Origin: a virus
Virus record (IMG/VR): IMGVR_UViG_3300012944_000006
Reading direction: 5' to 3' (one strand)
DNA length: 64,000 nt
The position numbers and the translations under genes were made by a program. Shown here piece by piece: positions 10,824 to 28,504 of the stretch. The stretch's first letter is position 1, and the number at the start of each line of letters is the position of its first letter. Under the pieces are notes generated by a model. That model saw only the letters and a program-made list of their open reading frames with translations. It had not been told where the DNA came from and did not search any database.

Positions 10824-12098
10824 TCAGTACCATAACACACCCTTTTGTACCATCCCATTGAAAGAATTTTCATATATTTTTTCACATTCTTCCTCAGAGA
10901 GGGGACTACAGCCTGGTGGGGGGGTATTCCGATAGAAATCTCTTAAGTCCTTGGATAGCAGAGCTTCGCAGTGAATCTGCGGACAGTACGCCGCTGCTCT
11001 TCCTAATCCCCAAGAATTCGTGTTCACAGACGGATATAGCTGCTGATAGAAAAAGATAGACTGGGTTTCGTGTACTGGGGTCATCGTCCTCGGCTGGCTC
11101 CGCCAGTAAACATGAGAGTCCGTACGCCTCACGAAGAAGGGACTGTAGGGTTTCCCATCGCGTATTTCGGATGTCACTAACCATTTAGGCTTTAATCTCC
11201 TAAGTTCTTCAGTATTTGAGGGATATAGGCTTCTCCAGCGCTCTGCTGCCTCTTCCAGGCCTGCACGGGGCTTCCAGTTGGTCCGGGCTTCAACTCTGTT
11301 GGCTGAGGCAAACCGGGGGCAATTAGGTGTCCAAAGCCATTGGGTCATCTCAATTCGCATGTCAAAGTGGCATTTGAAACAAATTATCTCATGTTCATAG
11401 ACATTCTTCCACATATCCTCCAAAGCCCAGACTTTATTGGGGATAATGTGCATCGGATCATTTTTCAGGACTGGTCTACAGGCGTAGTCGAATGGAAGTG
11501 GTTCATGACATATTGAGCAGTTTCGTCCCAGGGTAAGGAGGATTTTGTGCCAAAGCTCGCATTTGGCGAATTCTTGGGCTGTATTGGGTCCCGGTCGATA
11601 AGGGCCGAATTTTGCATGGTGGGCGTAGATAGAGAGCCACTTACATACGTTTCGGACATAGCGCTTCGCAGCACCCTCAACAGCTTTGTCAACGCTCCCT
11701 CTGTCTGGCGCATTGAATCTATTAGTGTTTTTAACGTATCTTCGCCAAGAAGTTCGTTTTTCGTTCTCAAAATTCCAGTTAAGGACTTTCTCTCGGCCTT
11801 TAATGCTGACTGCTTCTGGTTTAAATACTGGCGGGTGTGTTTTAACGTCGTTAACAATTCGTTCGTACCATCTAGTATATCCATAGAAGAACCTGTCAAT
11901 TGCTTCTTGTTCACTTAAATCCTTCCATGCTGCTTTATAGTTTGGTTTTCTTGTCTCATGATGGTAGTCTTTGAACTTTTGAAGCTGATCTCCCTTGTCT
12001 TCTCGGGACATATCCTTGTATTTCTGGCGTCTCAAGAGGTTATAAGCATCTTTCTCCTCCTGGGTCATTGCATTCCAATTTCTAGGCATTCTCCACAT
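10824..12098 (-). CDS. HNH-domain protein (terminase-associated type?)
   Basis: CSICHEP...MHIIPNKV...ICFKCHFD matches the CxxC..H..N..CxxCH HNH layout; adjacent to packaging genes. Confidence 0.6.
   Translation of the reverse strand: MWRMPRNWNAMTQEEKDAYNLLRRQKYKDMSREDKGDQLQKFKDYHHETRKPNYKAAWKDLSEQEAIDRFFYGYTRWYERIVNDVKTHPPVFKPEAVSIKGREKVLNWNFENEKRTSWRRYVKNTNRFNAPDRGSVDKAVEGAAKRYVRNVCKWLSIYAHHAKFGPYRPGPNTAQEFAKCELWHKILLTLGRNCSICHEPLPFDYACRPVLKNDPMHIIPNKVWALEDMWKNVYEHEIICFKCHFDMRIEMTQWLWTPNCPRFASANRVEARTNWKPRAGLEEAAERWRSLYPSNTEELRRLKPKWLVTSEIRDGKPYSPFFVRRTDSHVYWRSQPRTMTPVHETQSIFFYQQLYPSVNTNSWGLGRAAAYCPQIHCEALLSKDLRDFYRNTPPPGCSPLSEEECEKIYENSFNGMVQKGVLWY
10896..10918 (-). promoter_or_regulatory. 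dispersed motif copy inside the 3' end of 10824-12098
   Basis: - strand reads caccaggctgtagtcccctctct. Confidence 0.4.
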
Positions 12099-12423
12099 AC
12101 TCCACTTTAAGGTTCTTATCCTGCATCATTTCGTCAACTTTACGCTCAACCTCTGCAATAATGCCTTTTCTACGCATAACTTCCATCTTTATCCATGTTT
12201 GCATCAAAGAATTCTCACAACACTTGCGAAAAGCTTCCTTCTTGTTCGAAGGTTGATCTCTTCCGTCTCTATGTTCTGCTCGGGCTCCAGAAGGTGGATG
12301 GATGCAACGTACCCCATTTTGCTTGGCATTGCGGTGTTGACCCCCATTTCCGCCTGTGCAGAAGGTTTGAAAGATAAAATCAGAAGCTGTTAAGGAAAAC
12401 AGTGGTTTTCTATTCTCATCCAT
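12082..12423 (-). CDS. GGQ-domain protein, class-I release factor / ArfB-like peptidyl-tRNA hydrolase
   Basis: TGGNGGQHRNAKQNGVRCIHPPSGARAEHRDGRDQPSNKK aligns by eye with the RF1/RF2/ArfB motif SGxGGQxVNKxxSAVRxxHxPTGxxxxCQxxRSQxxNK. Confidence 0.85.
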   Translation of the reverse strand: MDENRKPLFSLTASDFIFQTFCTGGNGGQHRNAKQNGVRCIHPPSGARAEHRDGRDQPSNKKEAFRKCCENSLMQTWIKMEVMRRKGIIAEVERKVDEMMQDKNLKVEYVENA

Positions 12424-14895: not shown

Positions 14896-15045
14896 ATGAA
14901 CCAATTCATTCCTATTAACGCTGCTGTTAATGCAAAACTAACAGTGGCCGAACTGATTAGTATCCTTAGCATTACACCCAAGGATACTATATTATACTTT
15001 AAACTGAAAGCGTTGTACCGTAAGGTGTTACGGGAGGCCAGATGA
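14896..15045 (+). CDS. small hypothetical protein, possible HTH (49 aa)
   Basis: gagg RBS; ATGA overlap with the next ORF; LTVAELISILSITPKDTILYF resembles a helix-turn-helix. Confidence 0.45.
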   Translation: MNQFIPINAAVNAKLTVAELISILSITPKDTILYFKLKALYRKVLREAR

Positions 15046-15404
15046 ACTTTGCTACATACAAAGCGAAGTTAAGCCAAGAGCAGGATGGACATAAGTCCTT
15101 TCGTCCATTCCCCTTAACGGCTGAGACTGAAGACACTCAGCTTATGCGTCTCGAAGATGAGACAGAAAGCGTGAGACTACACCACGCTCTAAAGATTGCC
15201 AAACAATGCTATGACCGCATAGTATTAGGGCAAATGACTTCCGTACCAAACGACATCGAACGGTATTGCCAAGTAGAGCAAGTGTGGCATACCATGATAC
15301 CTGCCATTGTATCAATGGTGGTTGACCTTAACCCGATGTATAACCCAGATGCTATCGCGCCTAGTTACAAGTGCGCCAAGCATTTCCTGAAAGGGAGAAT
15401 ATGA
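15042..15404 (+). CDS. hypothetical protein
   Basis: 120-aa ORF, translationally coupled on both sides. Confidence 0.6.
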   Translation: MNFATYKAKLSQEQDGHKSFRPFPLTAETEDTQLMRLEDETESVRLHHALKIAKQCYDRIVLGQMTSVPNDIERYCQVEQVWHTMIPAIVSMVVDLNPMYNPDAIAPSYKCAKHFLKGRI

Positions 15405-15760
15405 GAGAATTAAGCGCAACATCAACCCCTGAAGAAGTAAGAACAGCGTGGGCTTTTGCATTAGAGAGTGGAGAGTACCCCCAAGGCAAGCTCTACCTAA
15501 ACAACAATGATCAATTTTGTTGCTTAGGTGTCCTCTGTGAACTTGCCGTAAAAGCAGGCATGACTGAACGAGGTACTGAGATTCTTGTAAGATACGAGGA
15601 TAAAAATGGATATGGTGATGCCAGCACTCAATATGCCCCAACTGGTGTTAGGATGTGGGCAGGATTGTCCTCTTCTGAACAGCAGAGATTAACAGTTGCT
15701 AATGACTTCTATAACAAGTCCTTCTCCGAAATAGCAGAGATGGTTAGAGCAATCGATTAG
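15401..15760 (+). CDS. hypothetical protein
   Basis: Trimmed to the ATG at 15401 (gggaga RBS, ATGA overlap). Confidence 0.6.
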   Translation: MRELSATSTPEEVRTAWAFALESGEYPQGKLYLNNNDQFCCLGVLCELAVKAGMTERGTEILVRYEDKNGYGDASTQYAPTGVRMWAGLSSSEQQRLTVANDFYNKSFSEIAEMVRAID

Positions 15761-15804
15761 TTCTTGCTCAAGCCCACATAACAGTGGGCTTTATGGAGGA
15801 ACTA

Positions 15805-15930
15805 ATGACAACTTTAATACTTTTCTTCGGGATGGTTTTAGCCAACCATTCTGGTTTTAACGTACCACCACCGCACGGACATATGCCAGTACAGTATGGC
15901 GTACCTCCGGGCAGAACTTCTCTACGATAG
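15805..15930 (+). CDS. 41-aa hydrophobic peptide
   Basis: ggagga RBS; MTTLILFFGMVLA hydrophobic N-terminus. Confidence 0.4.
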   Translation: MTTLILFFGMVLANHSGFNVPPPHGHMPVQYGVPPGRTSLR

Positions 15931-15954
15931 CGATGACATTAGATTGCTATCTAA

Positions 15955-15978
15955 CACCAGGCCATCAACCCCCTCTAT
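15955..15978 (+). promoter_or_regulatory. dispersed motif copy
   Basis: caccaggccatcaaccccctctat, 49 nt before the ATG at 16028. Confidence 0.5.
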
Positions 15979-16027
15979 TAGGAACATCAACATTTTGTTT
16001 TAACAATCAGGTAAAAAGGAGTAAACA

Positions 16028-16294
16028 ATGAAGAAATTAGTATCTGTAACTGAAGTAGAAGGAGAAGGGCTCGAAGCTCTTCTTGGTGAACAGGTTCTCT
16101 TGTTCGGATTAAATTATATTTATGCTGGAAAACTTTCCGGTGTAAACGACACGTTTGTACAATTGGAGGAGGCTTCAATTGTTTATGAGACAGGACCTTT
16201 TAACACAAAAGGTTACAAAGACGCTCAGACACTTCCAGGAAACGCCTGGTACGTCCAACGCGGAGCTATTGAGTCTTTCGGTCTTGGAAAATAA
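16028..16294 (+). CDS. hypothetical protein
   Basis: 88 aa, aaggag RBS, dispersed motif copy 49 nt upstream. Confidence 0.65.
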   Translation: MKKLVSVTEVEGEGLEALLGEQVLLFGLNYIYAGKLSGVNDTFVQLEEASIVYETGPFNTKGYKDAQTLPGNAWYVQRGAIESFGLGK

Positions 16295-16527
16295 TGATCC
16301 GAGGACGAAAACAACGTTGGTCTGGGACTGGATCTGGATCTGGGTCTTGGTCTAGGACTGGGTTTTGGTCTGGATCTGGGTCTTGGTCTTGGACTGGGTC
16401 TGGATCTGGGTCTTGGTCTAGGACTGGGTTTTGGTCTGGATCTGGGTCTTGGTCTTGGACTGGATCTGGGTCTAGGACTGGATCTAGGACTGGATCTGGA
16501 TCTGGGTCTAGGTCTGGATCTTGGTAA
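16294..16527 (+). CDS. Ser/Gly/Trp/Thr/Arg dipeptide-repeat protein, copy 1
   Basis: MIRGRKQRW then (S/T/F)(G/W/R) repeats to the stop; TAATG overlap with the upstream ORF. Confidence 0.6.
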   Translation: MIRGRKQRWSGTGSGSGSWSRTGFWSGSGSWSWTGSGSGSWSRTGFWSGSGSWSWTGSGSRTGSRTGSGSGSRSGSW

Positions 16528-16536
16528 AGAGTAATA
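16294..16536 (+). repeat. hexanucleotide-periodic array, direct repeat copy 1
   Basis: units (tct/act/ttt)(ggg/gga/tgg/agg); 11 GATC sites in 16296-16520; same flanks as 18105-18347. Confidence 0.95.
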
Positions 16537-16578
16537 TACCCGATACGTAAATGTATCCATTGAGTTACGGAGGTAACC

Positions 16579-16770
16579 GTGCAATCTGAATGGGATTTGT
16601 GGTTGGACACATTTGTCCAACTACAACACGCAGCCATTGCAGTTAAGAAAGATCATGAGGCTGTATTAGCTATTAGCCATGCAGCGCACGAACTTAACCG
16701 TTGTAAAGCAGGCTATCATCAACCCGGTGGCAAAAAGTTCTATCCATTTGGATTTGAGATGTTGGCCTAA
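16579..16770 (+). CDS. hypothetical protein
   Basis: GTG start with ggagg RBS. Confidence 0.55.
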   Translation: MQSEWDLWLDTFVQLQHAAIAVKKDHEAVLAISHAAHELNRCKAGYHQPGGKKFYPFGFEMLA

Positions 16771-16812
16771 ACACAGTCCTCCCCCAATTAACCCGCTGTA
16801 AACAGGTGACTT

Positions 16813-17097
16813 ATGCACATTGAGATTATTCCTCAAGACCATAAAACAGTTGAGCAGACAACGAATAAGTTCGCTACTGCCCATCCTGAGTTTGTCAACC
16901 CACTAACGATAGCGTTGACACGTCGTTATCTTAAGGCTGAATACCACGCAGCAACACGCAATCGCACGTTAGTGCTATTCACCAAAGAGAAGGGTAAGAA
17001 GGCAAAAGTCGTAGCCTCCTACCTAATGACAAAACAACACTCTAACAGCTATGAAATTCCTATCTCGAAGGAGTTTCTTAACTCTAAGGCGGTGTAG
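16813..17097 (+). CDS. hypothetical protein
   Basis: 94-aa ORF in + operon. Confidence 0.55.
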   Translation: MHIEIIPQDHKTVEQTTNKFATAHPEFVNPLTIALTRRYLKAEYHAATRNRTLVLFTKEKGKKAKVVASYLMTKQHSNSYEIPISKEFLNSKAV

Positions 17098-17099
17098 TC

Positions 17100-17342
17100 A
17101 TGCCCCTTACAGTAGATCGTACACCTATTCAACGAGCTGTTGCTAAGTTCCCCTCCACGTTTCATTTAATAGATACGTGGGACGCAACATTTCGCATAAA
17201 CCCGGACAAATCCTACTGGGATAACAACGGGGTAATCAAACTGCAGGTTGAAGTTGTTGAGAACACCAACAACGATGAATGGCGTCCATTCTGCTTCTAC
17301 ACAGTTATGGGATTGGCATCACGTTTGGAGGTAGAACCATGA
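17100..17342 (+). CDS. hypothetical protein
   Basis: 80-aa ORF in + operon. Confidence 0.55.
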   Translation: MPLTVDRTPIQRAVAKFPSTFHLIDTWDATFRINPDKSYWDNNGVIKLQVEVVENTNNDEWRPFCFYTVMGLASRLEVEP

Positions 17343-17536
17343 AAGACATGGATGCTTCTCTAACAATTGTTAAACGTGTTCGTCTCCCCAGGTACTACGG
17401 CAATGGTACATTTGATACCTACATCGACATGTACCCGATAGACATCCCTAGACGATGGGAAGAGTTACTTTCCATCAGTGACAGAAACTACCTTGCTAAC
17501 CTACGAATAGGGTATAAAAATGACCCTCTCTATTAA
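17339..17536 (+). CDS. hypothetical protein
   Basis: Trimmed to the ATG at 17339 (ATGA overlap with the preceding stop). Confidence 0.55.
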   Translation: MKDMDASLTIVKRVRLPRYYGNGTFDTYIDMYPIDIPRRWEELLSISDRNYLANLRIGYKNDPLY

Positions 17537-17708
17537 CATTTCAGCCCAAACCCCCTATCTAGCCATCAGGGAGGGATACGTTCTACCGTATCCCATCTCT
17601 GATTGTGCTAGTGCAAAGGACATGGTTCCATACGCAATCTATCCTAGCGTCTCAGCGTTAATAAAGATGCTATCCACCAGGCCCCTAACCCCCTCTATGG
17701 AGAACTAG
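17520..17708 (+). CDS. hypothetical protein
   Basis: 62-aa ORF; its 3' end contains a motif copy. Confidence 0.45.
   Translation: MTLSINISAQTPYLAIREGYVLPYPISDCASAKDMVPYAIYPSVSALIKMLSTRPLTPSMEN
17675..17698 (+). promoter_or_regulatory. dispersed motif copy
   Basis: caccaggcccctaaccccctctat then ggagaactagaga ATG 17712. Confidence 0.5.
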
Positions 17709-17711
17709 AGA

Positions 17712-17939
17712 ATGAGTTCAATCGAGTATTGTGGATGTGTTGCTGCTCCCGCACGTGGCTCAGTCAAGTGTGGTGGTAGTAAGTCTAAATCTATGTTCAA
17801 CATGCCAGTCATCCGTTCGGCTGGCGCACAGTATCAGGATTCCATCTACGGCATTGGCATGCGTGTTCACAATGAACGTGTTGTAAAAAACAAGGTAACA
17901 GGACATCGTTGCACTGTTTGCGAATCCACCAAATCCTAA
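17712..17939 (+). CDS. small Cys-rich protein (possible zinc ribbon)
   Basis: CGC...KCGG ... HRCTVCES; motif copy and ggag upstream. Confidence 0.55.
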   Translation: MSSIEYCGCVAAPARGSVKCGGSKSKSMFNMPVIRSAGAQYQDSIYGIGMRVHNERVVKNKVTGHRCTVCESTKS

Positions 17940-18104
17940 GTAGAACAAAATCTGCGGGGGTACTGTCATGCTCAACTAATCGATTTGACAGGGAGCCTAA
18001 AAACTCCCTTCATCGGAGCCAATAACATCCAGCCTCTACGTGGCGGCTCTAACAATGTCAGGTTGTAACCCCGATAACTAATGGGTGGATTTTAGGGAGT
18101 AAAC

Positions 18105-18338
18105 ATGATCCGAGGACGAAAACAACGTTGGTCTGGGTCTGGGTCTGGATCTGGGTCTTGGTCTAGGACTGGGTTTTGGTCTGGATCTGGGTCTTGGTCT
18201 TGGACTGGATCTGGGTCTAGGACTGGATCTAGGACTGGATCTGGATCTGGGTCTTGGTCTTGGTCTAGGACTGGGTCTTGGTCTAGGACTGGATCTAGGA
18301 CTGGATCTAGGACTGGATCTAGGACTGGGTCTTGGTAA
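18105..18338 (+). CDS. Ser/Gly/Trp/Thr/Arg dipeptide-repeat protein, copy 2
   Basis: Same first 11 codons and same length (77 aa) as 16294-16527; gggag RBS 7 nt upstream. Confidence 0.6.
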   Translation: MIRGRKQRWSGSGSGSGSWSRTGFWSGSGSWSWTGSGSRTGSRTGSGSGSWSWSRTGSWSRTGSRTGSRTGSRTGSW

Positions 18339-18347
18339 AGAGTAAAA
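18105..18347 (+). repeat. hexanucleotide-periodic array, direct repeat copy 2
   Basis: Same unit set; 10 GATC sites in 18107-18320; ends tcttggtaaagagtaa as in copy 1. Confidence 0.95.
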
Positions 18348-18359
18348 AAGGAGACCATA

Positions 18360-18509
18360 ATGAACGAAAAACAAATCCGAGATGATCTTAAAGTGATCGA
18401 CGAAACCACCGATGATCAACTCGATACCTATATTAAGCAAGGGCTGTTACTCCTTGCAGCAATAGCCATAAACCTTTCAATTATTACCCATCGTTTGGGT
18501 GATAAGTAA
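18360..18509 (+). CDS. 49-aa protein with C-terminal hydrophobic helix
   Basis: aaggaga RBS; GLLLLAAIAINLSIIT segment. Confidence 0.45.
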   Translation: MNEKQIRDDLKVIDETTDDQLDTYIKQGLLLLAAIAINLSIITHRLGDK

Positions 18510-18511
18510 GT

Positions 18512-18718
18512 TTGCCAATAGCGATGACTGCATACGAGCGACAATTCGACCGAATCATAGGCGAGATGATAACAGCGGTGGGACATCTAGCCAACGGGCT
18601 ACAGCTCGATCAGTCACTGTCAGATCCGGATGTAGCATCGCTATGGCAAAACCTTTCAGCCAGTGACCTAGAATTCTTAGGAGAAATGAAATGCGAGAGT
18701 ATAAAGGCTGCTTTATAA
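18512..18718 (+). CDS. hypothetical protein
   Basis: 68-aa ORF (TTG; alternative ATG at 18524). Confidence 0.45.
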   Translation: MPIAMTAYERQFDRIIGEMITAVGHLANGLQLDQSLSDPDVASLWQNLSASDLEFLGEMKCESIKAAL

Positions 18719-18918
18719 GGGCCAGACAAGATGTTATCGAAAGACACAAGGCTATAGCTATCCATTATGGGATCAGCTTTAAAACACTAACGGAATCTTT
18801 ACTCGGCCCTGAACGATTTATGACAATGACTCCCCTAGCTCGTAAAGTCATTGTAAACGATCTTAAACGGCAAGCCAAAAAGGTGGCAGTTACTAAAAGC
18901 CAGATAATAGGGGGTTAA
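18691..18918 (+). CDS. hypothetical protein
   Basis: 75-aa ORF in + operon. Confidence 0.5.
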   Translation: MREYKGCFIRARQDVIERHKAIAIHYGISFKTLTESLLGPERFMTMTPLARKVIVNDLKRQAKKVAVTKSQIIGG

Positions 18919-18927
18919 TGCCTGGTG
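18907..18927 (-). promoter_or_regulatory. dispersed motif copy, reverse relative to the gene, contains GTG start 18925
   Basis: atagggggttaatgcctggtg. Confidence 0.45.
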
Positions 18928-19233
18928 CATGAAATTCTTCAAGACGTAAGTAATTATGTCGAAGATGAACGCTACTTCGGTAGAGAAGCCTTCAATGCAG
19001 CTATGACTATGCTGGCTGAGGCTAACAACGATGTCAACAAGGCTATAATCAAGGGGACATTGGATTGCTTTGATGTCCCGCGCATTAACAAGGAACGGGA
19101 CGAACTCGAACGTCGGATGAAGGCGCGTCTACACTTCACAAGAATGAAGATGCAGGAACGTCAATCGGGCAAGCCACGTAGAACTGCTCGGCAAAGCCTA
19201 ACGTTTGCTGACATTAAAGAAAGGAACAAATGA
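18925..19233 (+). CDS. hypothetical protein
   Basis: GTG start lies inside a reverse-oriented motif copy (gcctgGTGcat). Confidence 0.5.
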   Translation: MHEILQDVSNYVEDERYFGREAFNAAMTMLAEANNDVNKAIIKGTLDCFDVPRINKERDELERRMKARLHFTRMKMQERQSGKPRRTARQSLTFADIKERNK

Positions 19234-19463
19234 ACGAATCATATCGCAAGGGTTATATGGATGCTTTGCTAGTCGTTCAAGGAATGGCAGCAGGATCGTT
19301 ATCTCTTGCTCCGTTTGTTAAGCGTATTAAAGAACATAAAGCACAAACTACAAAAGGAGGTCGTTTTGAGATTAAGAAAGTTACTCGTACCCCTTATCCT
19401 GGTTGCAAGTGCAGCTACTGCCAGAGCTCAAGAGCCTCCAAAGACACTACAAATCCAAGGTGA
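19230..19463 (+). CDS. hypothetical protein (3' part overlaps the next gene)
   Basis: ATGA coupling to the upstream ORF; C-terminal CKCSYC. Confidence 0.45.
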   Translation: MNESYRKGYMDALLVVQGMAAGSLSLAPFVKRIKEHKAQTTKGGRFEIKKVTRTPYPGCKCSYCQSSRASKDTTNPR

Positions 19464-19830
19464 CCTGTGGGAAGTCTCAGTCTTTAGTTTCGATCATATT
19501 ACCAGTAGTAAGGGATATGAGACCTTCTTTTTACTTGAAGGTTATACCTTGTGCAATACACGTCAGATCTGGCTGGACAATCGAAATGATGAGGAACGCA
19601 AAGAGAGAGTAAACACTCTTTTACACGAAGCTACTCACGCTGAAGCTTGTAAACGTGGAGGCACGAATAAAGGCTATACGTATTACAATTCTTCTGACCC
19701 GGGTTCTCATGAGGGGATCTATCACATAGCAGATGCTATGGAAGATTTGTTAACACACAATCCTGAGCTTCTCAAATGGATAGGAGAATATCGTGTTCCA
19801 AAGCTTTCAAGTGACACAGAATCACATTAA
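19366..19830 (+). CDS. secreted HExxH protein (possible Zn-metallopeptidase)
   Basis: TTG start 5 nt after aaggagg; signal-like RLRKLLVPLILVASAATARA; LLHEATHAEA motif. Confidence 0.55.
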   Translation: MRLRKLLVPLILVASAATARAQEPPKTLQIQGDLWEVSVFSFDHITSSKGYETFFLLEGYTLCNTRQIWLDNRNDEERKERVNTLLHEATHAEACKRGGTNKGYTYYNSSDPGSHEGIYHIADAMEDLLTHNPELLKWIGEYRVPKLSSDTESH

Positions 19831-20767: not shown

Positions 20768-21049
20768 ATGATCATTCGTTTTAAAACTAAATCAGGCTCT
20801 AAGTATCAAATTGATTATGAAGCTCGGGTATGGGAATGTTTCTATGCCGGTGTGAAGTCCAAAATTCGGATTGATACTGGGGTGTTCTTTAACAATCCTA
20901 TTGTTAAGTTGGGCGAACGTGTTGTGATCTTAGGCCCTGCTTTACAAGAGGGTATGTTCGGACGTTTCATTTCAACATCCCCAGTTCAGAGCTTTGAACA
21001 GTTTTATAACGAAAACGAGCTTAAGGAGGCATTGTCAGATGTCGGTTAG
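20768..21049 (+). CDS. hypothetical protein
   Basis: Trimmed to the ATG after the ggagg RBS. Confidence 0.55.
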   Translation: MIIRFKTKSGSKYQIDYEARVWECFYAGVKSKIRIDTGVFFNNPIVKLGERVVILGPALQEGMFGRFISTSPVQSFEQFYNENELKEALSDVG

Positions 21050-22331
21050 TTTAAAAGATGTTCCAGAAAACACTCTGTTTAAGTTCGTTAAGAGTGAGAA
21101 AACCAAAGACGCTTACGAATCATCTATTACTATTTTAGCAAATGTTGATTATTACTGGTATAATTCTACTCCTGGATGTATTGCCAATCCTTATCTTGTG
21201 CAATTAGGTTTTTGTACCTATAGGATGCCTAAAGAAACTTGGGCTGAATTTCAAGTGGAAATCGAGACTGATTCGATTAAACAACTTAATTTAAAGACAA
21301 AGAATTTTTTCCAACTTCGTGCTCTGACAGGTTGGGACCCGGAACTCTTTGTTGTAGATGAGAAGAACAAGATTATTCCAGCCTTTGAGTTCCTTCCTCC
21401 GAAGCCAATGGCATTAAATATTAAACGTTATATGTATCCACAAACCCTCTATTCTGATGGCTTTGCAAGCGAATGGACTTGCGGTGTGCATGATTGCCAC
21501 GGTTGGGGAATTGACACTATTCGAGAAGGTATTAAAAGAACGTTCTATGCTGCTCGTGCCCACAATCCGAAAGCGAACGTTACTCTTCAAAATACTTTCA
21601 TCATCTCTCCGATTCGGATGAAGCGCTACAATGATGAACAAATTCGGCTTGGCTGCAATCCATCGAAGAATGCTTATGGTGATGAACCTATCCAAATTCT
21701 TGATGCTCGGAAGGTTGGCTTCCGAAGCGCCGGCGGACACATACATTTTAGTATTTCTGAATATTGGAAGAAAACAGCAACTCGTGATAATTGGGGTGCT
21801 CTTGCACAAGGAATGGATCTGTTTTTAGGTCTTCCTTGTGTTGCGCTTTTCAGTGGAATTGATAATCCACTTCGTAGAACGCTTTATGGGAGAGCTGGAG
21901 AATATCGCACTCCTCCATATGGTATTGAATACCGTGTGCTTTCAAATGCATGGCTTGGGATGCCTGAGATCACCCATCTTGTGATGAATACAGCTCGATC
22001 CGCTACAAAACTCGGGCGTCTAACCAAGGAAGAGCTTAACGGGCTTATGGCTCCAGAGGAACTTAAAGAAATCATCAATGTCTGCGATGTTCCGAGAGCC
22101 AGGGCTTTTGTGGAAAAGCATTGGAATCTCTTCCTTAACCTATCGGATCTGGGTTCTTTTAATCTTTCAAAGAAACTGTGGATGGATGGTGTTAAACACC
22201 ATTTTCCAAACTATGACACTCAAATTCTTGAAAACTGGTTGATTCCAGAGAGTCCTATACAACTCGATCCTTGGATAGCCCATTCCAACGATTCTAAAAA
22301 AACTTGGGGTCAATTGGCTACAAAACTATGA
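21039..22331 (+). CDS. COOH-NH2 ligase (GS/GCS2-like amidoligase), paralog 1
   Basis: Ordered motifs GWDPELFVV ... SDGFASEW ... SAGGHIHF ... GIEYRVLSNAWL shared with 25216-26724 and 29727-30650; aaggagg RBS. Confidence 0.7.
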   Translation: MSVSLKDVPENTLFKFVKSEKTKDAYESSITILANVDYYWYNSTPGCIANPYLVQLGFCTYRMPKETWAEFQVEIETDSIKQLNLKTKNFFQLRALTGWDPELFVVDEKNKIIPAFEFLPPKPMALNIKRYMYPQTLYSDGFASEWTCGVHDCHGWGIDTIREGIKRTFYAARAHNPKANVTLQNTFIISPIRMKRYNDEQIRLGCNPSKNAYGDEPIQILDARKVGFRSAGGHIHFSISEYWKKTATRDNWGALAQGMDLFLGLPCVALFSGIDNPLRRTLYGRAGEYRTPPYGIEYRVLSNAWLGMPEITHLVMNTARSATKLGRLTKEELNGLMAPEELKEIINVCDVPRARAFVEKHWNLFLNLSDLGSFNLSKKLWMDGVKHHFPNYDTQILENWLIPESPIQLDPWIAHSNDSKKTWGQLATKL

Positions 22332-22594
22332 ACGATTGTTCAGTTTGTCATGAAGGAATATTGCTCAATCCATCTACAGGTAGGGTGTCTGCTTGTACTG
22401 CTTGTGGTGGGATGGGAGAAGTTGATCCCAATGCCATCTGTGCTTGTGGTAGAGCCGCTGTTGGTCGGAAAGATGGATTTGCCATTTGTGGTCGAGCTGA
22501 ATGTTTAGAGAATTTTAAACGAGAGGTAAAAATATCAAGTTTTGGGACTCATTCCCCTGCTTATAACACTTGGCAAGAGTACCAAGGGGATTAA
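22328..22594 (+). CDS. zinc-ribbon protein with DnaJ-type CxxCxGxG motif
   Basis: CSVCHEG ... CTACGGMGE ... CACG ... CGRAEC; ATGA coupling to ligase 1. Confidence 0.55.
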   Translation: MNDCSVCHEGILLNPSTGRVSACTACGGMGEVDPNAICACGRAAVGRKDGFAICGRAECLENFKREVKISSFGTHSPAYNTWQEYQGD

Positions 22595-22894
22595 CGAGGT
22601 CGGTAGGAGGAAGTAACAGAGTGAAACGCCTAGATTCTATTTCCGGTTAGCGCCTGCTCAGGCTAAACAACTTTAGGGTTTCCTAAATTGGACTGGAAAT
22701 AGGTGTCAGGTCGTTACTTGAATATGGTTTTCAGTAGAGCCTCTGGGGGCGGAGCAACTAAGGTAGGTGGATTCGTCCGTCTATAAGTGTGTTCCCCGAT
22801 TCAAACCAAGCTCCTACGGGGCCATATGAGAGTAGTGGAATGACAATCTAGAGGATACGCTTCTGCGATGCTTCCTCCTTAGACAATTTTTGAG
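22595..22894 (+). ncRNA. ~300-nt structured non-coding segment (candidate cis-regulatory or independent RNA)
   Basis: Nested helices 22605-22613/22871-22879, 22630-22636/22845-22851, 22637-22647/22692-22702 plus local hairpins; no ORF. Confidence 0.4.
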
Positions 22895-22900
22895 GTGACT

Positions 22901-23284
22901 ATGGAACAAACTAAAGTCTTCGTCTACGGAACCTTAAAGCAGGGAGAGGTTTCACACCACTTCCTAGAGCATATGAAGGCACGCTTCATTGCGAAAGACA
23001 CCGTTGTTGGTCGGATTGTAACGGTTCTAGGGAGGTATCCCGGTCTCGTTCCTAGTCCTACAGGTCTTGTATCTGGAGAAGCTTATGAGATTCCGGTCAC
23101 TGGATTATTGACCTTGGACATATACGAAGGCACCGATCATGGTCTTTACGAGCGTAAGCAGGTTATGACTACCGGTGGTGAATGTGTGTGGGCATACTTC
23201 GCTAAGAGGGGATTTGAGCCCGGTATTTATGTGGAATCTTCATCCCCGATGACATACTCTTGGGGCCACGGGAGTATGGAATAG
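22901..23284 (+). CDS. gamma-glutamylcyclotransferase / AIG2-GGACT family protein
   Basis: VFVYGTLKQGE ... YPGLVP ... VSGEAYEI ... LDIYEG ... YERKQV, the family signature order. Confidence 0.85.
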   Translation: MEQTKVFVYGTLKQGEVSHHFLEHMKARFIAKDTVVGRIVTVLGRYPGLVPSPTGLVSGEAYEIPVTGLLTLDIYEGTDHGLYERKQVMTTGGECVWAYFAKRGFEPGIYVESSSPMTYSWGHGSME

Positions 23285-23533
23285 GTTTAAGCTTCCTAGC
23301 CACGTAAACGGTCTAGGATGTAAATCCTTCTCTTCGGAGAGGGTCCAAAGACTTAACACAAGTCTTCGGCATAAGGTAACACCTGAAAGCGCCCTCAAAG
23401 GGGGACCAAGTAGGGAGAGCATAGTCAATGTGCCCGGCCAGCACATCCTTCCCAAAAGACTATGCTTAGAGGACACGCGACTCTGTTAGGAGAGTCCTAC
23501 GTAGCTCCTACCCAAGTTTAGAAAAGGAGAAGT
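23285..23533 (+). ncRNA. ~250-nt structured non-coding segment
   Basis: UUCG-capped 7-bp hairpin 23326-23343; hairpin 23349-23365; 9-bp helix 23418-23426/23458-23466 enclosing 23428-23433/23441-23446; hairpin 23479-23496. Confidence 0.4.
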
Positions 23534-23917
23534 ATGGCAGAAAAGAAGCCGTTGATGCAATTGACGTTGGCAGCTCTTAGGAAGAAGTATCCTGAGGGGG
23601 AGTATGGGAATAACTATAGTTGTTACCACAACGATTTTTATCTACAGTCTAGGGGATTTTATCACTGCTGTGGAGCTCTAGAGATTGGGGTGTTTGATGG
23701 CTTTCAAGATGGTGATCCTGAAAAGAATCAAGCCTTTCTTGCTCGTGCCATTAAAGAATTCATGTTTAGTAATAGGGTTAGAACTGTGTTCTGTTCAACC
23801 ATAACTGCCCAAAAAGAAGAAAGGGCAGCTTTAGAGGCCATCGGGTTTGCAGAAGTCACCACAAGTATCAATCCCAAGACCCGTAATCGAATCACATTCT
23901 GGGCTTATTCGGAGTAA
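23534..23917 (+). CDS. hypothetical protein (weak GNAT-like C-terminal resemblance)
   Basis: aaggaga RBS; ...ALEAIGFAEV...NPKTRNRITFW resembles the GNAT C-terminal strand-helix; weak. Confidence 0.5.
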   Translation: MAEKKPLMQLTLAALRKKYPEGEYGNNYSCYHNDFYLQSRGFYHCCGALEIGVFDGFQDGDPEKNQAFLARAIKEFMFSNRVRTVFCSTITAQKEERAALEAIGFAEVTTSINPKTRNRITFWAYSE

Positions 23918-23919
23918 GC

Positions 23920-24438
23920 ATGGCGGAACTTAGAGTTCCAATTCGACTCATCTGGCGGTTATGTTATCCGGCTGGACATCGGTTGAATCCAAATCCGGTT
24001 CTTACAGACGAACAGCGTAAGAATCCTGTAGATGCAATCGTTGTCCAAGCTAGGGTTGTGCCGAGTCGTAATACATCCTTTGAGAAAGGCAATCTCCCAG
24101 AGCATGACTACAAGTATTATCAAGGCAGCTCGATGATTAATAGTCAAGTGGCAACATGCCGTTGGTGTCAAACGGTTGTCTATGGGGAGAAAGCACGACT
24201 AGAACATAAAGCCGGAGGTTGTTTACATTGGATAGATGTGCTTGGAGAATGGATGCGGACGGATGGGTCTTGTGTTGTTTGTGAGACGAAGACTAGCTTC
24301 GCTAAATGGGGCATTCCCTTATGTAGCACGAACTGCATCAATGCGTTTCGATACTTCAGCCCAACGCCTTGGAGAGATGAACAACTAATAGTGAAAAACT
24401 TCGAGAAGGGGCGAAAAGTCGGTCATGTTAAGGTATAG
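23920..24438 (+). CDS. Cys-rich zinc-finger protein
   Basis: CRWC...HKAGGC ... CVVC...CSTNC. Confidence 0.55.
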   Translation: MAELRVPIRLIWRLCYPAGHRLNPNPVLTDEQRKNPVDAIVVQARVVPSRNTSFEKGNLPEHDYKYYQGSSMINSQVATCRWCQTVVYGEKARLEHKAGGCLHWIDVLGEWMRTDGSCVVCETKTSFAKWGIPLCSTNCINAFRYFSPTPWRDEQLIVKNFEKGRKVGHVKV

Positions 24439-25219
24439 CTATCGAACCGCTAGGGCTTTGAATTTTGGGGATAGATACGCTACTAGAACACCGTTTCCAG
24501 GCCGTTGGCCTCTACGTCTGATAATCAGTAAACGTGAAAATCAAGTAGAGACCGGCAAGGATATAACTGTCTATAACGGAAAGCCATCTCGAAATGCTTG
24601 GCGGATTTGGGAGAATTGTATACGAGATCCTGATCGGCATCGAACGGTTTGGTATCGGGGTTGGCTCTATGATCGACACGCAAGATGCGCTGTTTTTAGT
24701 GACCTAGATGGAGATGGTGGCTTTCGTAGAAGCGCATTGTTCTTCCGTTATTACTTCATGCCGGAGGGTTGCAACGACAAGGCGATATTTGAGTCACAAC
24801 CTCTTAGGATTCGAGAAGGGGCGATCTTTGTGAATCCTCGCTTTGAATATCCCAAGGCCCAGTTTCATGCTGGATTAAGGTCCAATATCCGAGGCGGCAA
24901 TAAGGCACGAATGCCGGAGAACATTCAGGAGCTGGGTGAGTATATGTATCCACAATTCCTCAATAACCCCCCCCTACCAGGCCCTAATACCCCTCGTCGT
25001 CCGGGGCAGAGAGTTATAGCAGTACACGCTCCAGAAGAAGAAGCAGAACATACAAGGCTGTTTGGGGTGTTTAATAAAATTCGAACGGGAATAGGTACTC
25101 CTGTTGTCTTTAGAGAACCGCCTATAAGGTTCCCTCGGTGGGTTGTTACGACGGTTGAGCCTCCATTGGGGCCAGAGCAGCCAAATGATCCGTATCAAGA
25201 TGAGGACGGGAACGCATGA
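24425..25219 (+). CDS. hypothetical protein, Pro-rich C-terminus
   Basis: 264-aa ORF; carries an in-frame motif copy (LPGPNTPRRP). Confidence 0.55.
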   Translation: MLRYSYRTARALNFGDRYATRTPFPGRWPLRLIISKRENQVETGKDITVYNGKPSRNAWRIWENCIRDPDRHRTVWYRGWLYDRHARCAVFSDLDGDGGFRRSALFFRYYFMPEGCNDKAIFESQPLRIREGAIFVNPRFEYPKAQFHAGLRSNIRGGNKARMPENIQELGEYMYPQFLNNPPLPGPNTPRRPGQRVIAVHAPEEEAEHTRLFGVFNKIRTGIGTPVVFREPPIRFPRWVVTTVEPPLGPEQPNDPYQDEDGNA

Positions 25220-26724
25220 GTAATCTGTTCTACAAACCGGAATTCCTCAAAGATTATGTCAGCGGTGGACCTAAGCAAGATCGTTGGGCGGAGATCCTTC
25301 CTAAGGATACAAGAGAACTCTGGACAAGTAAGTTCTTGAACTTTAAGAACGATGAATTCAAACCTAATGCTAATCATAGGTTGCTCAACAACTTTATGAT
25401 TGGTTCTGATCCTGAGTTTGTTTTTGTACACGGAGGAGACAGACATAAAACTTCTGCTATAGCAGTAGGTCTCAAAGTAGGGTTGGCTGCTGGAGCTGAT
25501 CAGAATGAACGACTTGGAGAACTGAGACCATATCCTTCTACCTATGTAGCCGAGCATTTGGCTTCCATCCTTGTGACTCTTCGTTGGATGTATCTGGTTA
25601 ATTCGGCATCATCCTCTTTTAATTGGAGAGCTGGAGCTTGGTATGATGCTGATGGTATCGGAGGTCATATTCATTTCGGGCGTAAGCGTCCCAATCGAAT
25701 CGAAGAGATACGTGGTTTGAATGGTTTGGCGTTGATGTTGGCTCGGCTTGGTTTGTTTCCAATGACTGAGTGGCATACTAGAATGGGTGGAGATTCTAGG
25801 GGTCAACTTTATGGGCGCTTTGGGGATATTCGGACTCAGCTTCATGGATATGAATATCGAACGCTACCATCGTGGTTGAATTCTCCAATAATTGCCTATA
25901 TATGTCTGGCAGCCAGCAAACTTGTGATCTTTGATCCAGATGTTACAATTCCCTGGGCGGACATTATTGAGAAAGACGAAAATCCGTTAGTTCGATTGCG
26001 AGGGTTGGCGAAGCTTTACAAGGGGCGGGATGATGACGCAGCAATTCTTTATCACATTTTAGGACAACCTAATCGGTGGACTGGTGATCCTGTGTCTCGT
26101 AGCTTTAAGGCAGCTTGGGGTATTCCAACAGCTGAGATGCTGGCGGTTACTGGATTTGAACATTACATTCTGCCTGATTCTATCGAACCTACAAAAACGG
26201 AAGTTGTTGAAATTGAAGACCATCTTCTTCAAGAGCGTCCTTTGACATTCTCACAACCAGTTCCTAATTTTGTATACACAATTCCGCCAACCTATACTTG
26301 GTTGCCGAGTGTGATTCAACCCGCTCGTAGGGCTGGTTTTGGGGACTTGATTCATAATGTTGTGACGGGTAAAGGTGTTCCAAATCTCAGGATTGAGTAT
26401 CTCGCAGATCAACAGAAAGTTGCTGTAAGTCCTAGAATGTGGGTTTATTGGAATATTAAGGAAAGAGAATACTTTCAAAACGAGATTGAAGGTAAGATTG
26501 AGAATGCTTGGGATGGATACGTCGTTGGTTTTCCTAGAACTTGGTGTATTCCTCCTGGGATTAAGAAGGCCAGACATTTCCTGTTTGATTCTGGTCTCCT
26601 ACCCGCATGGCGGGTAAAGGAAGTTCAGGAAGATTCTTTGTTAGCGTGGATCCATCTCCATTCCGATAAGAAAACAACTAAAAAGATTATTAAGACGTAC
26701 CATAAAAGCGGGAGAAATCTATAA
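25216..26724 (+). CDS. COOH-NH2 ligase (amidoligase), paralog 2
   Basis: IGSDPEFVFV ... IGGHIHFGRK ... GYEYRTLPSWL; ATGA coupling upstream. Confidence 0.7.
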   Translation: MSNLFYKPEFLKDYVSGGPKQDRWAEILPKDTRELWTSKFLNFKNDEFKPNANHRLLNNFMIGSDPEFVFVHGGDRHKTSAIAVGLKVGLAAGADQNERLGELRPYPSTYVAEHLASILVTLRWMYLVNSASSSFNWRAGAWYDADGIGGHIHFGRKRPNRIEEIRGLNGLALMLARLGLFPMTEWHTRMGGDSRGQLYGRFGDIRTQLHGYEYRTLPSWLNSPIIAYICLAASKLVIFDPDVTIPWADIIEKDENPLVRLRGLAKLYKGRDDDAAILYHILGQPNRWTGDPVSRSFKAAWGIPTAEMLAVTGFEHYILPDSIEPTKTEVVEIEDHLLQERPLTFSQPVPNFVYTIPPTYTWLPSVIQPARRAGFGDLIHNVVTGKGVPNLRIEYLADQQKVAVSPRMWVYWNIKEREYFQNEIEGKIENAWDGYVVGFPRTWCIPPGIKKARHFLFDSGLLPAWRVKEVQEDSLLAWIHLHSDKKTTKKIIKTYHKSGRNL

Positions 26725-27743
26725 TGTGTGGAATCGCAGGCATTAAAAGAATGGGCAATGAGCCAATAACTGTAGAAGAAATCTGTATTCTTTTATGCTC
26801 GTTGGAGCATCGTGGGAACCATGCGACAGGAATTGCTGTTGAAAACAATGGAGATATACACGTCTGCAAGAAAGATGTCCCCGCTTGGTCTTTCACGGCC
26901 AGTGATGAGTTCAAGGGATTTGTAGGGGAACATCTGAACGACGGCACGAATACGGTCCTATTGCATACCCGAGCTGCTACAAAGGGTGCGCCATACAAGA
27001 ATGAGAACAATCATCCGATGTATGCTGGAGAAACGGCTGTTGTTCACAATGGAGGTATCCGAAACGATGACTTTATATTCCGTAATCTATCCTTAAAGCG
27101 GAGTTGTGAGACGGACTCGGACATCATTCGAGCCATCCTTGATAAAGAAGGTCTTACTCGCAAGGGTGTTCGAGAATTGGAGAAGCTAGATGGTTCAATG
27201 GCAATAGCAGCCGTTCATCCAGATGCTCCTGAATATGTTCTCTTGGCTCGAAGCGGTAATCCTCTGATCATTGGAACCACAAACTTTAAGATCTATTGGG
27301 CTTCAGAACAACAAGCAATTCAAAAGGCAGTTCGTCCTTGGACTAAGAGATTTGGGCTTTGGTCTAGAGCTTCCAGCAGTGGTGATATCGTATACACTGC
27401 TATGCCAGATAATACAGCCTATCTGATGGGACCAGAGGGTCTGGATTGGAAGCAAGAAGTTAAGATCTGTGCTCAATTCCACGCTCCGATGTATCGAATG
27501 CACGAGAGTTATTTCACAAAGACTTCCAACTGGCGAGCAGAACGTCGGAGGCAGGCAGGTAAGACAGGAGAAGAACCTAAGAATCTCAGTCGGTATGCTG
27601 AGGTTGATAAGGCGGCATGGTGCGCTCTTTGCCCTTCTTGCAAAAAAGGCGTCACTAAAACCAATGTAATAAAGCCTTGGCGGAAATACAAATGTTCTAA
27701 TTGCAAAGCATCGCTTGCAGCACTTGATCAAAAACCAAACTAA
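26724..27743 (+). CDS. class-II (Ntn) glutamine amidotransferase with C-terminal zinc ribbon
   Basis: MCGIAGI (Cys2 nucleophile), LEHRGNHATGIA, HTRAATKG..NNHP, VHNGGIRN; CALCPSC...CSNC tail; TAATG coupling. Confidence 0.85.
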   Translation: MCGIAGIKRMGNEPITVEEICILLCSLEHRGNHATGIAVENNGDIHVCKKDVPAWSFTASDEFKGFVGEHLNDGTNTVLLHTRAATKGAPYKNENNHPMYAGETAVVHNGGIRNDDFIFRNLSLKRSCETDSDIIRAILDKEGLTRKGVRELEKLDGSMAIAAVHPDAPEYVLLARSGNPLIIGTTNFKIYWASEQQAIQKAVRPWTKRFGLWSRASSSGDIVYTAMPDNTAYLMGPEGLDWKQEVKICAQFHAPMYRMHESYFTKTSNWRAERRRQAGKTGEEPKNLSRYAEVDKAAWCALCPSCKKGVTKTNVIKPWRKYKCSNCKASLAALDQKPN

Positions 27744-27753
27744 AGGAGCAAAC

Positions 27754-28500
27754 ATGCGGTTCATTATTGCTAGGGGGGCTGGTCCTACCGGAACTCTTTT
27801 GCAAGAGCTTGTTCTTGCACAGATGAAAGAAGATAAAGTCCGAGACCGAGATTGTATCATTTGTTATGGTGCAGGTAGATTGGAGACACAAACTCCTACA
27901 TTGAACGCTCATTGTTCTGATATGACCAAGTTAGAACAAGCGGTTCGTTTGCAAGAACAGATGCCTGAAGAATCTTTGGCTGTATTTCGGCCAGATCAAC
28001 TAGAGGGGGTTAGATGGCCTGGTGGGGTTTTCTTGGGACGGAAGACACAGCATACTCAGGGCAAGGATATTCGAATTATCCTAGAGCCCTGGCAAGTGAC
28101 TGCGGCGGTACAAGCAGGGACGACTTTCTTCACAAGGTATGTGTCATCAGAACGAGAGTTCCGAGTTTGGGTTTATCGGAACAGGCATCTGGGAACCTAT
28201 GAGAAGGCTCTCACACGTCCAGCGGAGTTTAAAACTATCGGTCGAAATTATCACAATGGTTTCTCATTCCAGCGTATCGAGTCGAATAATGTGCCGGAAG
28301 CTCTCAAGGTAATCGCAAAGGACGCAATTCGATATTTGGATTTGGATTTTGGGGCTGTCGATGTTCTAGGAACTGCTGAGGGATACAAGGTTCTGGAGGT
28401 GAACTCAGCTCCGGGTGTACAAGATGATCGTAGAGCTGTGATTCAGGGGTTGGCCCATCGCATCGTTAGGTGGATGGCGAATGACTGTCCGGGGAGGTAG
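27754..28500 (+). CDS. ATP-grasp ligase (RimK-like)
   Basis: GRKTQHTQGKDI, SEREFRVWVY, DLDFGAVDVLG..GYKVLEVNSAPG; aaggag RBS. Confidence 0.75.
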   Translation: MRFIIARGAGPTGTLLQELVLAQMKEDKVRDRDCIICYGAGRLETQTPTLNAHCSDMTKLEQAVRLQEQMPEESLAVFRPDQLEGVRWPGGVFLGRKTQHTQGKDIRIILEPWQVTAAVQAGTTFFTRYVSSEREFRVWVYRNRHLGTYEKALTRPAEFKTIGRNYHNGFSFQRIESNNVPEALKVIAKDAIRYLDLDFGAVDVLGTAEGYKVLEVNSAPGVQDDRRAVIQGLAHRIVRWMANDCPGR

Positions 28501-28504
28501 ATAA

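Follow-up and report, generated by a model that had tools for sequence, protein, structure and literature searches.

The window analysed here, a stretch of 64,000 nt from IMG/VR virus record IMGVR_UViG_3300012944_000006, holds two open reading frames (ORFs) of 77 codons that consist, after a short common head, of hexanucleotide units, most of which encode serine followed by a second residue (x). Such a locus raises the question whether the repeat serves as DNA, as RNA or as protein and, if as protein, with what partner it acts. An earlier note on this DNA had taken the + strand frame to be expressed as a disordered Trp/Arg/Gly/Ser protein, and had offered a GATC-based DNA element and contingency repeats as other readings. 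The comparisons below point to an expressed peptide family that would work with a protein of predicted Sm-like fold, probably on RNA early in infection; we give this explanation as a whole a probability of roughly 45%.

The twin ORFs

The two ORFs, copies A and B, and the sequences next to them are laid out as follows (positions in the window).

16028-16294, +: 88-aa partner with predicted Sm/LSm fold (AlphaFold2 and Foldseek), first gene of the cassette
16294-16527, +: peptide gene copy A, 77 aa, stop included
16294-16320, +: head of copy A, MIRGRKQRW
16321-16524, +: array of copy A, 34 Ser-x units
16525-16527, +: stop codon of copy A
16528-16534, +: AGAGTAA, the 7 nt after the stop of copy A, common with copy B; the duplicated unit ends here
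16579-17939, +: six small ORFs (63, 94, 80, 65, 62 and 75 aa) between the copies
18095-18099, +: GGGAG, Shine-Dalgarno-like motif, 5 nt before the ATG of copy B
18105-18338, +: peptide gene copy B, 77 aa, stop included, with the head of copy A and 34 units in another order
18339-18345, +: AGAGTAA, the matching 7 nt after the stop of copy B

Copies A and B are identical over the first 33 nt from the ATG and show 0 nt of identity upstream of it, so that the duplicated unit starts exactly at the ATG. They also share the tail TCTTGGTAAAGAGTAA, made up of the last unit, the stop and the 7 nt after it, which ends at 16534 and 18345. Both arrays were called by Tandem Repeats Finder and are built from the same set of units (TCTGGG, TCTGGA, TCTTGG, TCTAGG, ACTGGG, ACTGGA and TTTTGG). 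Re-reading the sequence bore out the direct repeats, their 33-nt heads, the differing order of units and the six small ORFs in between as the earlier note had described them, along with the shared tail, although the interval given there overran the identity by 2 nt. Tryptophan occurs 10 times in copy A and 9 times in copy B (12 to 13% of residues), each time flanked by Ser or, in FWS units, by Phe and Ser. After position 9, neither peptide has any acidic or aliphatic residue, again as had been noted. The isoelectric point (pI) is 12, and the net charge is +8.5 for A and +11.5 for B.

Both copies carry signals for translation. A TAATG overlap, already pointed out in the earlier note, joins the ATG of copy A to the TAA of the 88-aa ORF. 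No Sm-like gene directly precedes copy B, which has a Shine-Dalgarno-like motif of its own; the GGGAG is present as claimed, at a spacing of 5 nt rather than 7. Copy A was found in independent assemblies, exactly in contig L007 and partially in L006 (L numbers are our handles for contigs and loci). We rejected the minus-strand PR/SR and DP frames as genes: they start in flanking sequence that is not homologous between the copies, and the repeat common to both opens precisely at the ATG of the + strand. Promoter and terminator scans yielded nothing beyond shuffled expectation, save terminator-like matches inside the repeats themselves. Together with the comparisons given below, these features leave us highly confident that both 77-codon ORFs are translated genes of a conserved cassette.

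A two-gene cassette in environmental phages

The earlier note had overlooked both the Sm-like gene directly upstream of copy A and the widespread two-gene cassette to which it belongs. With a 21-nt piece of the array as the query, we retrieved three unrelated IMG/VR contigs encoding peptides of the same type (e.g., MIRGKRKKFNGSKSGSKSWSRS... and MITKRTKWRRGSGSWSGS...), and in two of the three (L001 and L003), a homolog of the 88-aa ORF precedes the peptides. The family of this 88-aa protein is large: it comprises at least 2,274 clusters when grouped at 90% identity, many of which share 70 to 86% identity with the protein of the window, and an exhaustive search gave 474 representatives at 50% identity. 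We fetched and inspected 80 viral loci encoding it. Directly after the Sm-like gene, these loci have at least one ORF that combines a short head with a strict Ser-x tail and is often joined to that gene by a stop/start overlap (ATGA or TAATG) or separated from it by a gap of a few nucleotides, and the number of peptide genes per Sm-like gene ranges from 1 to about 15. Loci in which a first scan had found no array carry short versions (MTRGLKQKYRSGS followed by a stop in L010 and MRGLKQKYRSGSGSGLWSWSGSWSGCQ followed by a stop in L084). The pairing of the Sm-like gene with a Ser-x peptide is thus essentially universal in related loci with downstream sequence.

No third gene was co-conserved with the pair within 8 kb on either side in 65 distinct lineages, the next real family occurring in 8 of the 65, and the GC (guanine plus cytosine) fraction of the loci ranged from 0.33 to 0.64; the cassette is therefore autonomous and resides in very different phage backbones. 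The six ORFs at 16579-17939 lie outside it. Among GenBank phages, tblastn with the 88-aa protein and with a 111-aa relative described below returned one record for each query, both from uncultured spring-water phages, and the cassette was found in nine short contigs of metagenome-assembled genomes among about 186,000 species genomes. In MW202825.1 (5359-5831), neither the Sm-like gene nor the first peptide carries an annotation; in MW202573.1 (33288-33419), the cassette peptide is annotated as "hypothetical protein" (UOF78858.1). The cassette is therefore abundant in environmental phages and nearly absent from cultured or annotated genomes.

The most extended arrangement was seen in L001/L062 (IMGVR_UViG_3300042987_003260; GC, 0.58), in which about 15 peptide genes stand in tandem behind a single Sm-like gene at approximately 5870 to 9240 of L001, each with its own MITKR(T/S)(K/R)WRR head, their hexamer arrays together exceeding 3 kb. 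Multicopy or dispersed arrangements occur in L033, L050 and L083 as well as in L001.

This distribution bears on the possibility that the peptides are counter-defence factors or decoys for a host factor, with a tail that mimics a substrate or docking motif (a GW/WG-type hook for an Argonaute-like protein, or a protease or kinase bait) and so titrates a host factor of immunity or housekeeping, and with an Sm-like protein that merely carries or stabilises it. The cassette does lie in an early-type region of small genes and is inserted in many unrelated backbones, its peptide copy number of 1 to about 15 is of the kind often seen in arms-race genes, and Trp flanked by small residues generally resembles Argonaute hooks. 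However, neither PADLOC nor any other database gave a link, and a partner that is 60 to 86% identical across phages of 33 to 64% GC would seem to be more than a carrier. Our literature search found no link between prokaryotic Argonautes and Trp-binding pockets, and thus no support for the Argonaute-hook idea of the earlier note. We consider a decoy unlikely.

The partner has a predicted Sm/LSm fold

The 88-aa protein had no match in Pfam at E ≤ 0.1 and none in PHROG, NCBIfam or PADLOC, and a sequence search of the PDB with the profile of the Sm-like family found no match. An AlphaFold2 model built from a 34-sequence alignment reached a predicted local distance difference test score (pLDDT) of 89 and has a helix at residues 14 to 18 and five strands, in keeping with the Sm fold, in which an N-terminal helix precedes a strongly bent five-stranded beta-sheet. 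When this model was compared with the PDB by Foldseek, all 50 of the top matches listed were Sm/LSm-domain chains (probability, 1.00; template modeling [TM] scores, 0.5 to 0.8). Predicted viral structures matched more weakly and were mostly uncharacterised, with a few generic labels ("RNA binding protein" and "Sm-like domain"). An Sm/LSm fold is accordingly what structure prediction assigns to the 88-aa protein.

Tandem two-domain Sm-like proteins were seen among the relatives (P0125, P0126 and P0137); such members would fit a ring-forming oligomer and hint at pseudo-symmetric rings in some phages. A search for proteins in which the Sm-like domain is naturally fused to an enzyme or to a repeat tail found none, the longer members being upstream start calls, tandem domains or unannotated extensions.

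Selection acts on the peptide

Within each array, a single serine codon is used, which indicates that arrays grow by DNA amplification. This codon differs by lineage (TCT in 66 arrays, TCG in 25, AGC in 7 and TCA in 4, plus TCC and AGT). The codon changes even among arrays that share a head: MRGLKQKY heads are followed by TCT in L069, TCG in L070/L082 and AGC in L054; MVSP.S.R heads by AGC in L073, TCT in L078 and TCA in L063; and.NINT..SRY heads by TCG in L058 and AGC in L075 and L047. Serine and the S-[G/W/R] pattern thus persist although TCN and AGY codons differ at all three bases. The heads behave likewise. One and the same head is encoded by CGC GGG CTG AAG CAA AAA TAT CGG and by AGG GGC CTT AAG CAA AAA TAT AGG, and the fraction of codon differences that is synonymous in heads is roughly double the fraction in the two other frames. 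Head length clusters at 9 to 13 codons. Of 94 cases, 55 have the in-frame stop precisely where the array ends, and 76 have it no more than 3 codons away; in the other frames, the stop comes a median of 10 codons further on. On these sequence comparisons, and with a duplicated unit that starts at the ATG, it is the peptide and not the DNA that selection conserves, and the earlier view of the + frame as a genuine coding frame is upheld by Ser codons, heads and ORF boundaries alike.

What is kept of the tail is its composition. Across the family, the x positions hold Gly (0.37 ± 0.11), Trp (0.26 ± 0.08) and Arg (0.24 ± 0.10), with acidic residues at 0.04; the order of x residues is statistically random (dimer observed/expected ratios, 0.88 to 1.14), and peptide lengths run from 13 to 91 residues. 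Composition and periodicity are thus kept while order and length are not, which argues against a folded repeat and for a low-complexity polymer that is disordered. Runs of SRSRS occur often. In phase-separating proteins and multivalent nucleic-acid-binding regions, aromatic and Arg "stickers" alternate with Gly/Ser "spacers," and the Ser-x tails match this grammar by analogy. That the product is a low-complexity Trp/Arg/Gly/Ser polypeptide without a database match, as the earlier note had it, agrees with our searches: the peptide belongs to no family in Pfam, PHROGs, NCBIfam or PADLOC, and of the 3,560 word candidates that a phmmer-type search returned for the 77-aa peptide, none was significant after composition correction.

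We also weighed whether the transcript itself, (UCUNGG)n, might be the functional product, its translation being incidental; a structured or G-rich RNA of this kind could, for instance, be bound by the Sm-like ring and serve as a sponge or as a site of autoregulation. The arrays of the window fold far more strongly than shuffled sequences (z = -7.6 and -10.3), Sm-fold proteins typically bind RNA, and the x codon is NGG in 83% of cases, in all lineages. The folding is explained by the self-complementarity of UCUGGR units, a by-product of codon choice in this lineage, and the median z weakens from -6.4 in TCT arrays to -2.5 in TCG, -2.1 in TCA and +0.75 in AGC arrays; RNA secondary structure, which fades outside TCT arrays, was therefore rejected as a feature of the family. 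Rfam had no match in the whole window. The preference for NGG may be kept because Trp has only TGG, with GGG (Gly) and AGG/CGG (Arg) as its stop-free single-step neighbours at the first base in a repeat that changes by duplication of units and point mutation. Because serine is kept when all three codon bases change, head changes are synonymous and stops fall at array ends, a function of the RNA alone is very improbable.

GATC sites and array dynamics

The density of GATC stressed in the earlier note is real: copies A and B have 11 and 10 sites per 243 nt, where about 1.1 would be expected, and the background of the window is 4.6 per kb. The earlier note had compared the arrays with the GATC clusters of oriC and the P1 pac site. 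As a DNA-level element, they would be read by Dam/SeqA-type proteins in replication, packaging or timing, or be simply recombinogenic microsatellites. All sites in A and B, except one in each ATGATC head, lie at GGA|TCT junctions. In 107 family arrays (15.8 kb), we counted 64 GATC sites, 30 of them from the window lineage, and 79 arrays had none; the remaining 34 sites in about 15 kb are below the window background. In the window lineage alone, about half of the Gly codons are GGA, GGG exceeding 90% elsewhere, so its GATC density follows from its choice of GGA and TCT codons. GATC was therefore rejected as a family feature, the sites not being kept in homologous arrays, and the Dam/SeqA-type proposal is not supported. 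That the direct repeats flank 1.6 kb, that a near-identical contig carries an A/B chimera in place of the intervening genes and that many assemblies break at the arrays would all suit a DNA-level element. Against it stand the lack of GATC enrichment outside the window lineage, a duplicated unit that begins exactly at the ATG and the protein-level evidence, and we regard its probability as close to negligible.

Duplication of units and recombination lengthen and shorten the hexanucleotide arrays. Unit strings show an internal duplication of 11 units in copy A and a different tail extension of about 11 units in copy B, so that the equal length of the two copies is the outcome of two different events. 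The proposal of length-constrained contingency repeats is weakly supported: arrays do evolve in this way, lengths range from 13 to 91 aa in the family, and any gain or loss of a 6-nt unit keeps the frame, so that changes in unit number do not switch it. As to variation in unit number between otherwise near-identical genomes, the arrays are identical across the independent samples of L020-L024 and also in L017/L018, L009/L011 and L026/L027/L029, whereas differences among L031, L032 and L034 and an A/B chimera point the other way.

The chimera was found in L005 (ENA ERZ27253147 k141_3714012), which comes from another sample and has flanks about 99.9% identical to the window. At 4267-4404, it carries a single 45-codon array whose first 60 nt are those of copy A and whose last 116 nt are those of copy B, with a 29-nt shared junction, and it is without the six genes of window positions 16579-17939. 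This array is either a natural recombinational deletion between the copies or a chimera made by the assembler at an early small-k stage. About 15 of the 80 viral contigs end 50 to 450 nt past the Sm-like gene (L008, L037, L040, L042, L045, L049, L053, L056, L064, L076 and others), and several metagenome contigs, including L004 and L006, likewise end just past it, which indicates that the arrays systematically break short-read assemblies. With arrays that break or collapse such assemblies and gene callers that often skip the peptides, systematic under-annotation results. Gene length in this family is set by microsatellite-like dynamics, with composition and periodicity selected while DNA sequence and residue order are not.

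Peptide heads co-vary with the partner subfamily

Sampling was also run in reverse, from perfect (TCTNGG)8 arrays, which were found in at least 120 viral contigs. Ninety-nine listed array contigs had at least 600 nt upstream; in 44 of these, a member of the 88-aa family lies upstream on the same strand, mostly ending about 26 to 105 nt before the first perfect array, and a further 14 have an upstream protein of about 111 aa. The latter family is a remote homolog of the 88-aa protein (hhalign probability, 95%; E = 3.9e-8; 71 columns; 21% identity) and belongs to no family in PHROGs, Pfam, NCBIfam or PADLOC. The remaining array-first loci were plain (SR)n/(SW)n microsatellites, downstream copies of multicopy loci and a few orphans (L140 and L178). 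Peptides that follow a 111-aa partner have heads of the form M..A[IV][ML]R[AE]G[FY][DE], in contrast to the basic M.R..KQK[YW]R heads found with 88-aa partners, whereas the tail is the same. The head thus co-varies with the partner subfamily and the tail does not, as expected if the head docks on the partner. These sequence patterns suggest such docking, and we judge it fairly probable that the peptides act physically with the Sm-like protein.

A head followed by a repetitive core, several precursor copies and a partner subfamily that co-varies with the head are also what one would expect of precursors of ribosomally synthesised and post-translationally modified peptides (RiPPs). In that case, the small upstream protein would recognise the head as a leader, and the Ser-x core would be modified by enzymes, for example those of the host or of the amidoligase/ATP-grasp cluster of the phage, the window encoding three COOH-NH2 ligases, a glutamine amidotransferase and a RimK-like ATP-grasp protein at 20994-30650. 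However, no modifying enzyme is co-conserved within 8 kb on either side in the 65 lineages, the partner has an Sm-like fold and not a PqqD-like winged helix, and the core has a random order and no Cys or other typical chemistry handles. A RiPP-like role is very improbable; it is disfavoured, as are the RNA-level and DNA-level explanations.

Pairs of small genes with overlapping stop and start codons are also laid out like type II toxin-antitoxin pairs. Given the charge of the window peptides (+8.5 and +11.5), their pI of 12 and their Trp content of 12 to 13%, one could imagine a toxic cationic peptide, membrane-active or translation-inhibiting in the manner of Trp/Arg antimicrobial peptides or of poly-GR/PR dipeptide repeats, used for host shut-off or superinfection exclusion, with the Sm-like protein as a chaperone or antidote that restrains or delivers it. 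With Ser at every second residue, no hydrophobic stretches and Gly at 37% of x positions, the peptides are unlike membrane-active ones, and many Glu residues occur in some members (L001 and L026). Up to about 15 peptide genes per partner, and no partner adjacent to copy B, fit poorly with stoichiometric neutralisation. Neither the Sm-like protein nor the peptide matched toxin or antitoxin families in Pfam, NCBIfam or PADLOC. We hold a toxin to be unlikely, and rate it below the decoy.

Proposed mechanism

In the explanation that we favour, a conserved protein with an Sm/LSm fold would be the first component and the peptides the variable second one, copy A being translationally coupled to the Sm-like gene. 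The short head (9 to 13 residues) would dock on an Sm-like oligomer. The tail, a disordered multivalent polycation with Trp/Arg stickers and Ser/Gly spacers, would supply in trans a low-complexity nucleic-acid-binding segment like the RG repeats of eukaryotic Sm proteins. Sm-like protein and peptide together may bind or sequester RNA early in infection, possibly as an assembly or condensate. That the complex binds or sequesters RNA through its disordered Trp/Arg tails at that stage is a tentative proposal and, taken by itself, rather doubtful. The fullest version is a two-component system of many uncultured phages in which an Sm-like ring would recruit free-standing Trp/Arg/Gly/Ser tails through the docking head, tail number and length would be tuned by the dynamics of the hexanucleotide arrays, and the resulting RNA-binding assembly or condensate would trap RNA of the host or the phage or counter a defence based on RNA; it is more doubtful again.

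Several observations weigh against this explanation. By sequence, the 88-aa protein is not significantly similar to Sm proteins, and it does not match the LSM/Hfq profile with its Sm1 and Sm2 motifs. A canonical uridine pocket is formed by His or an aromatic residue and Asn in loop 3 and by Arg-Gly-Asp in loop 5. An hhalign comparison of the 88-aa family with an archaeal Sm reference sequence was not significant (E = 0.1; probability, 0.6%), and this weak alignment sets the archaeal His37 and Asn39 opposite a gap and Phe; the Sm2 position of the family reads WYVQxxAIESFG, without a conserved Arg-Gly. The predominance of NGG, with Gly encoded by GGG in more than 90% of cases, may reflect a residual constraint at the DNA or RNA level on a GG every 6 nt. 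An AlphaFold2 run on the concatenated Sm-like protein and peptide (single sequence) gave a pLDDT of 34 and was uninformative. The evidence for translation, interaction and RNA binding is indirect, and all members of the family come from uncultured phages. Lastly, some arrays lack an adjacent Sm-like gene, namely copy B and those of L140/L178 and L002.

In L140/L178, the place of the Sm-like gene is taken by a 528-aa ORF that has a Cys-rich motif at its N terminus and is followed by a peptide with a basic head (MVTKRTKYRSMSRSGS...). The Ser-x peptides of L002 (495-853, -) have hydrophobic heads (MKIPLFLLW... and MKVPIAIYL...) and tails that are more acidic, and no Sm-like gene could be recognised upstream of them; these peptides may represent a third class of heads or a different use of the tail.

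Relation to known systems

Eukaryotic SmD1, SmD3, SmB and LSm4 carry C-terminal tails of RG/GR dipeptide repeats, and they share with the phage cassette an Sm-fold core and a basic Gly/Arg dipeptide-repeat segment. The phage repeat differs in being a separate polypeptide from its own gene or genes, with Ser at every second position and about 26% Trp at x. The phage partner differs in having no significant Sm sequence similarity, and a canonical RNA pocket is not evident in the weak alignment.

RS domains of SR splicing factors resemble the tails in their alternating Ser and Arg, their disorder and their binding to nucleic acid and protein, but they reside in large proteins with RNA recognition motifs and are regulated by SR kinases, whereas the phage tails are free-standing, Trp/Gly-rich and of 13 to 91 aa. 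The GW/WG Argonaute hooks of GW182 and viral suppressors likewise have Trp flanked by small residues in a disordered repeat; strict Ser periodicity, high Arg, a setting in bacterial viruses and an obligatory Sm-like partner set the phage peptides apart. C9orf72 poly-GR and poly-PR also arise from a hexanucleotide array as dipeptide-periodic Arg-containing polypeptides. They are, however, pathological products of non-AUG translation of a pure repeat, while the phage genes have a conserved AUG, head and stop, mixed x residues and signs of purifying selection. In Clf/Sdr Ser-Asp repeats and serine-rich repeat adhesins, Ser at every second position is encoded by short DNA repeats as well, but these Gram-positive stalks are long, acidic or neutral, glycosylated and part of secreted, wall-anchored proteins, whereas the phage peptides are tiny and very basic, with no signal peptide or glycosyltransferase gene.

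The phage proteins closest in kind are GoF, MotB.1 and Frd.2 of T4 (Tevenvirinae), small early proteins with a predicted LSm-like fold that are suspected of acting on RNA (PMC12152347); the abstract and outline of that paper mention no repeat-peptide partner. The likeness lies in their being small early phage proteins with that predicted fold. Our tblastn against GenBank phages, which returned only the uncultured spring-water phages, gave no sequence tie to them.

The literature searched contained nothing that describes a Ser-x peptide or its pairing with an Sm-like protein. The cassette thus lies outside known kinds of system, and what we infer of its function comes from composition, fold prediction and gene linkage. 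If partner and tails do act on RNA, the cassette would be a new phage route to RNA manipulation and a prokaryotic-virus parallel to RG-tailed Sm proteins, to Sm/LSm granules with their parts split over separate genes and to sticker-spacer condensate scaffolds.

Genomic context

The window represents the genome of a tailed phage, with a large terminase, a portal protein, a family-A-type DNA polymerase and COOH-NH2 ligases. No tRNAs were detected in it, and megablast of positions 15000-19500 against GenBank phages gave no match and no close relative of the window. The twin ORFs sit among small + strand genes at the start of the replication/metabolism arm. On the - strand at about 12040-12400 (55-396 in L005/L006), a 113-aa gene with an RF-1 domain (peptide chain release factor/ArfB-like; PF00472) adjoins the divergent junction upstream of this block of small genes.

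Further downstream, a phiEco32-type amidoligase cluster spans 20994-30650. It comprises COOH-NH2 ligases (PF14395) at 20994-22331, 25216-26724 and 29727-30650, a class-II glutamine amidotransferase at 26724-27743 and a RimK-like ATP-grasp protein at 27715-28500, and its substrate may be a peptide, a protein or a base. Other phages do not conserve this cluster together with the Sm-like/peptide cassette.

The six ORFs between the copies had no family in PHROGs, Pfam, NCBIfam or PADLOC. The last of them (17712-17939, 75 aa) has Cys pairs (CGC...C...CTVC) suggestive of a small zinc-binding protein. Beyond copy B, a 174-aa ORF at 19306-19830 contains a HEATH motif and showed weak, sub-threshold matches to metallopeptidases (DUF6782 and Aspzincin_M35).

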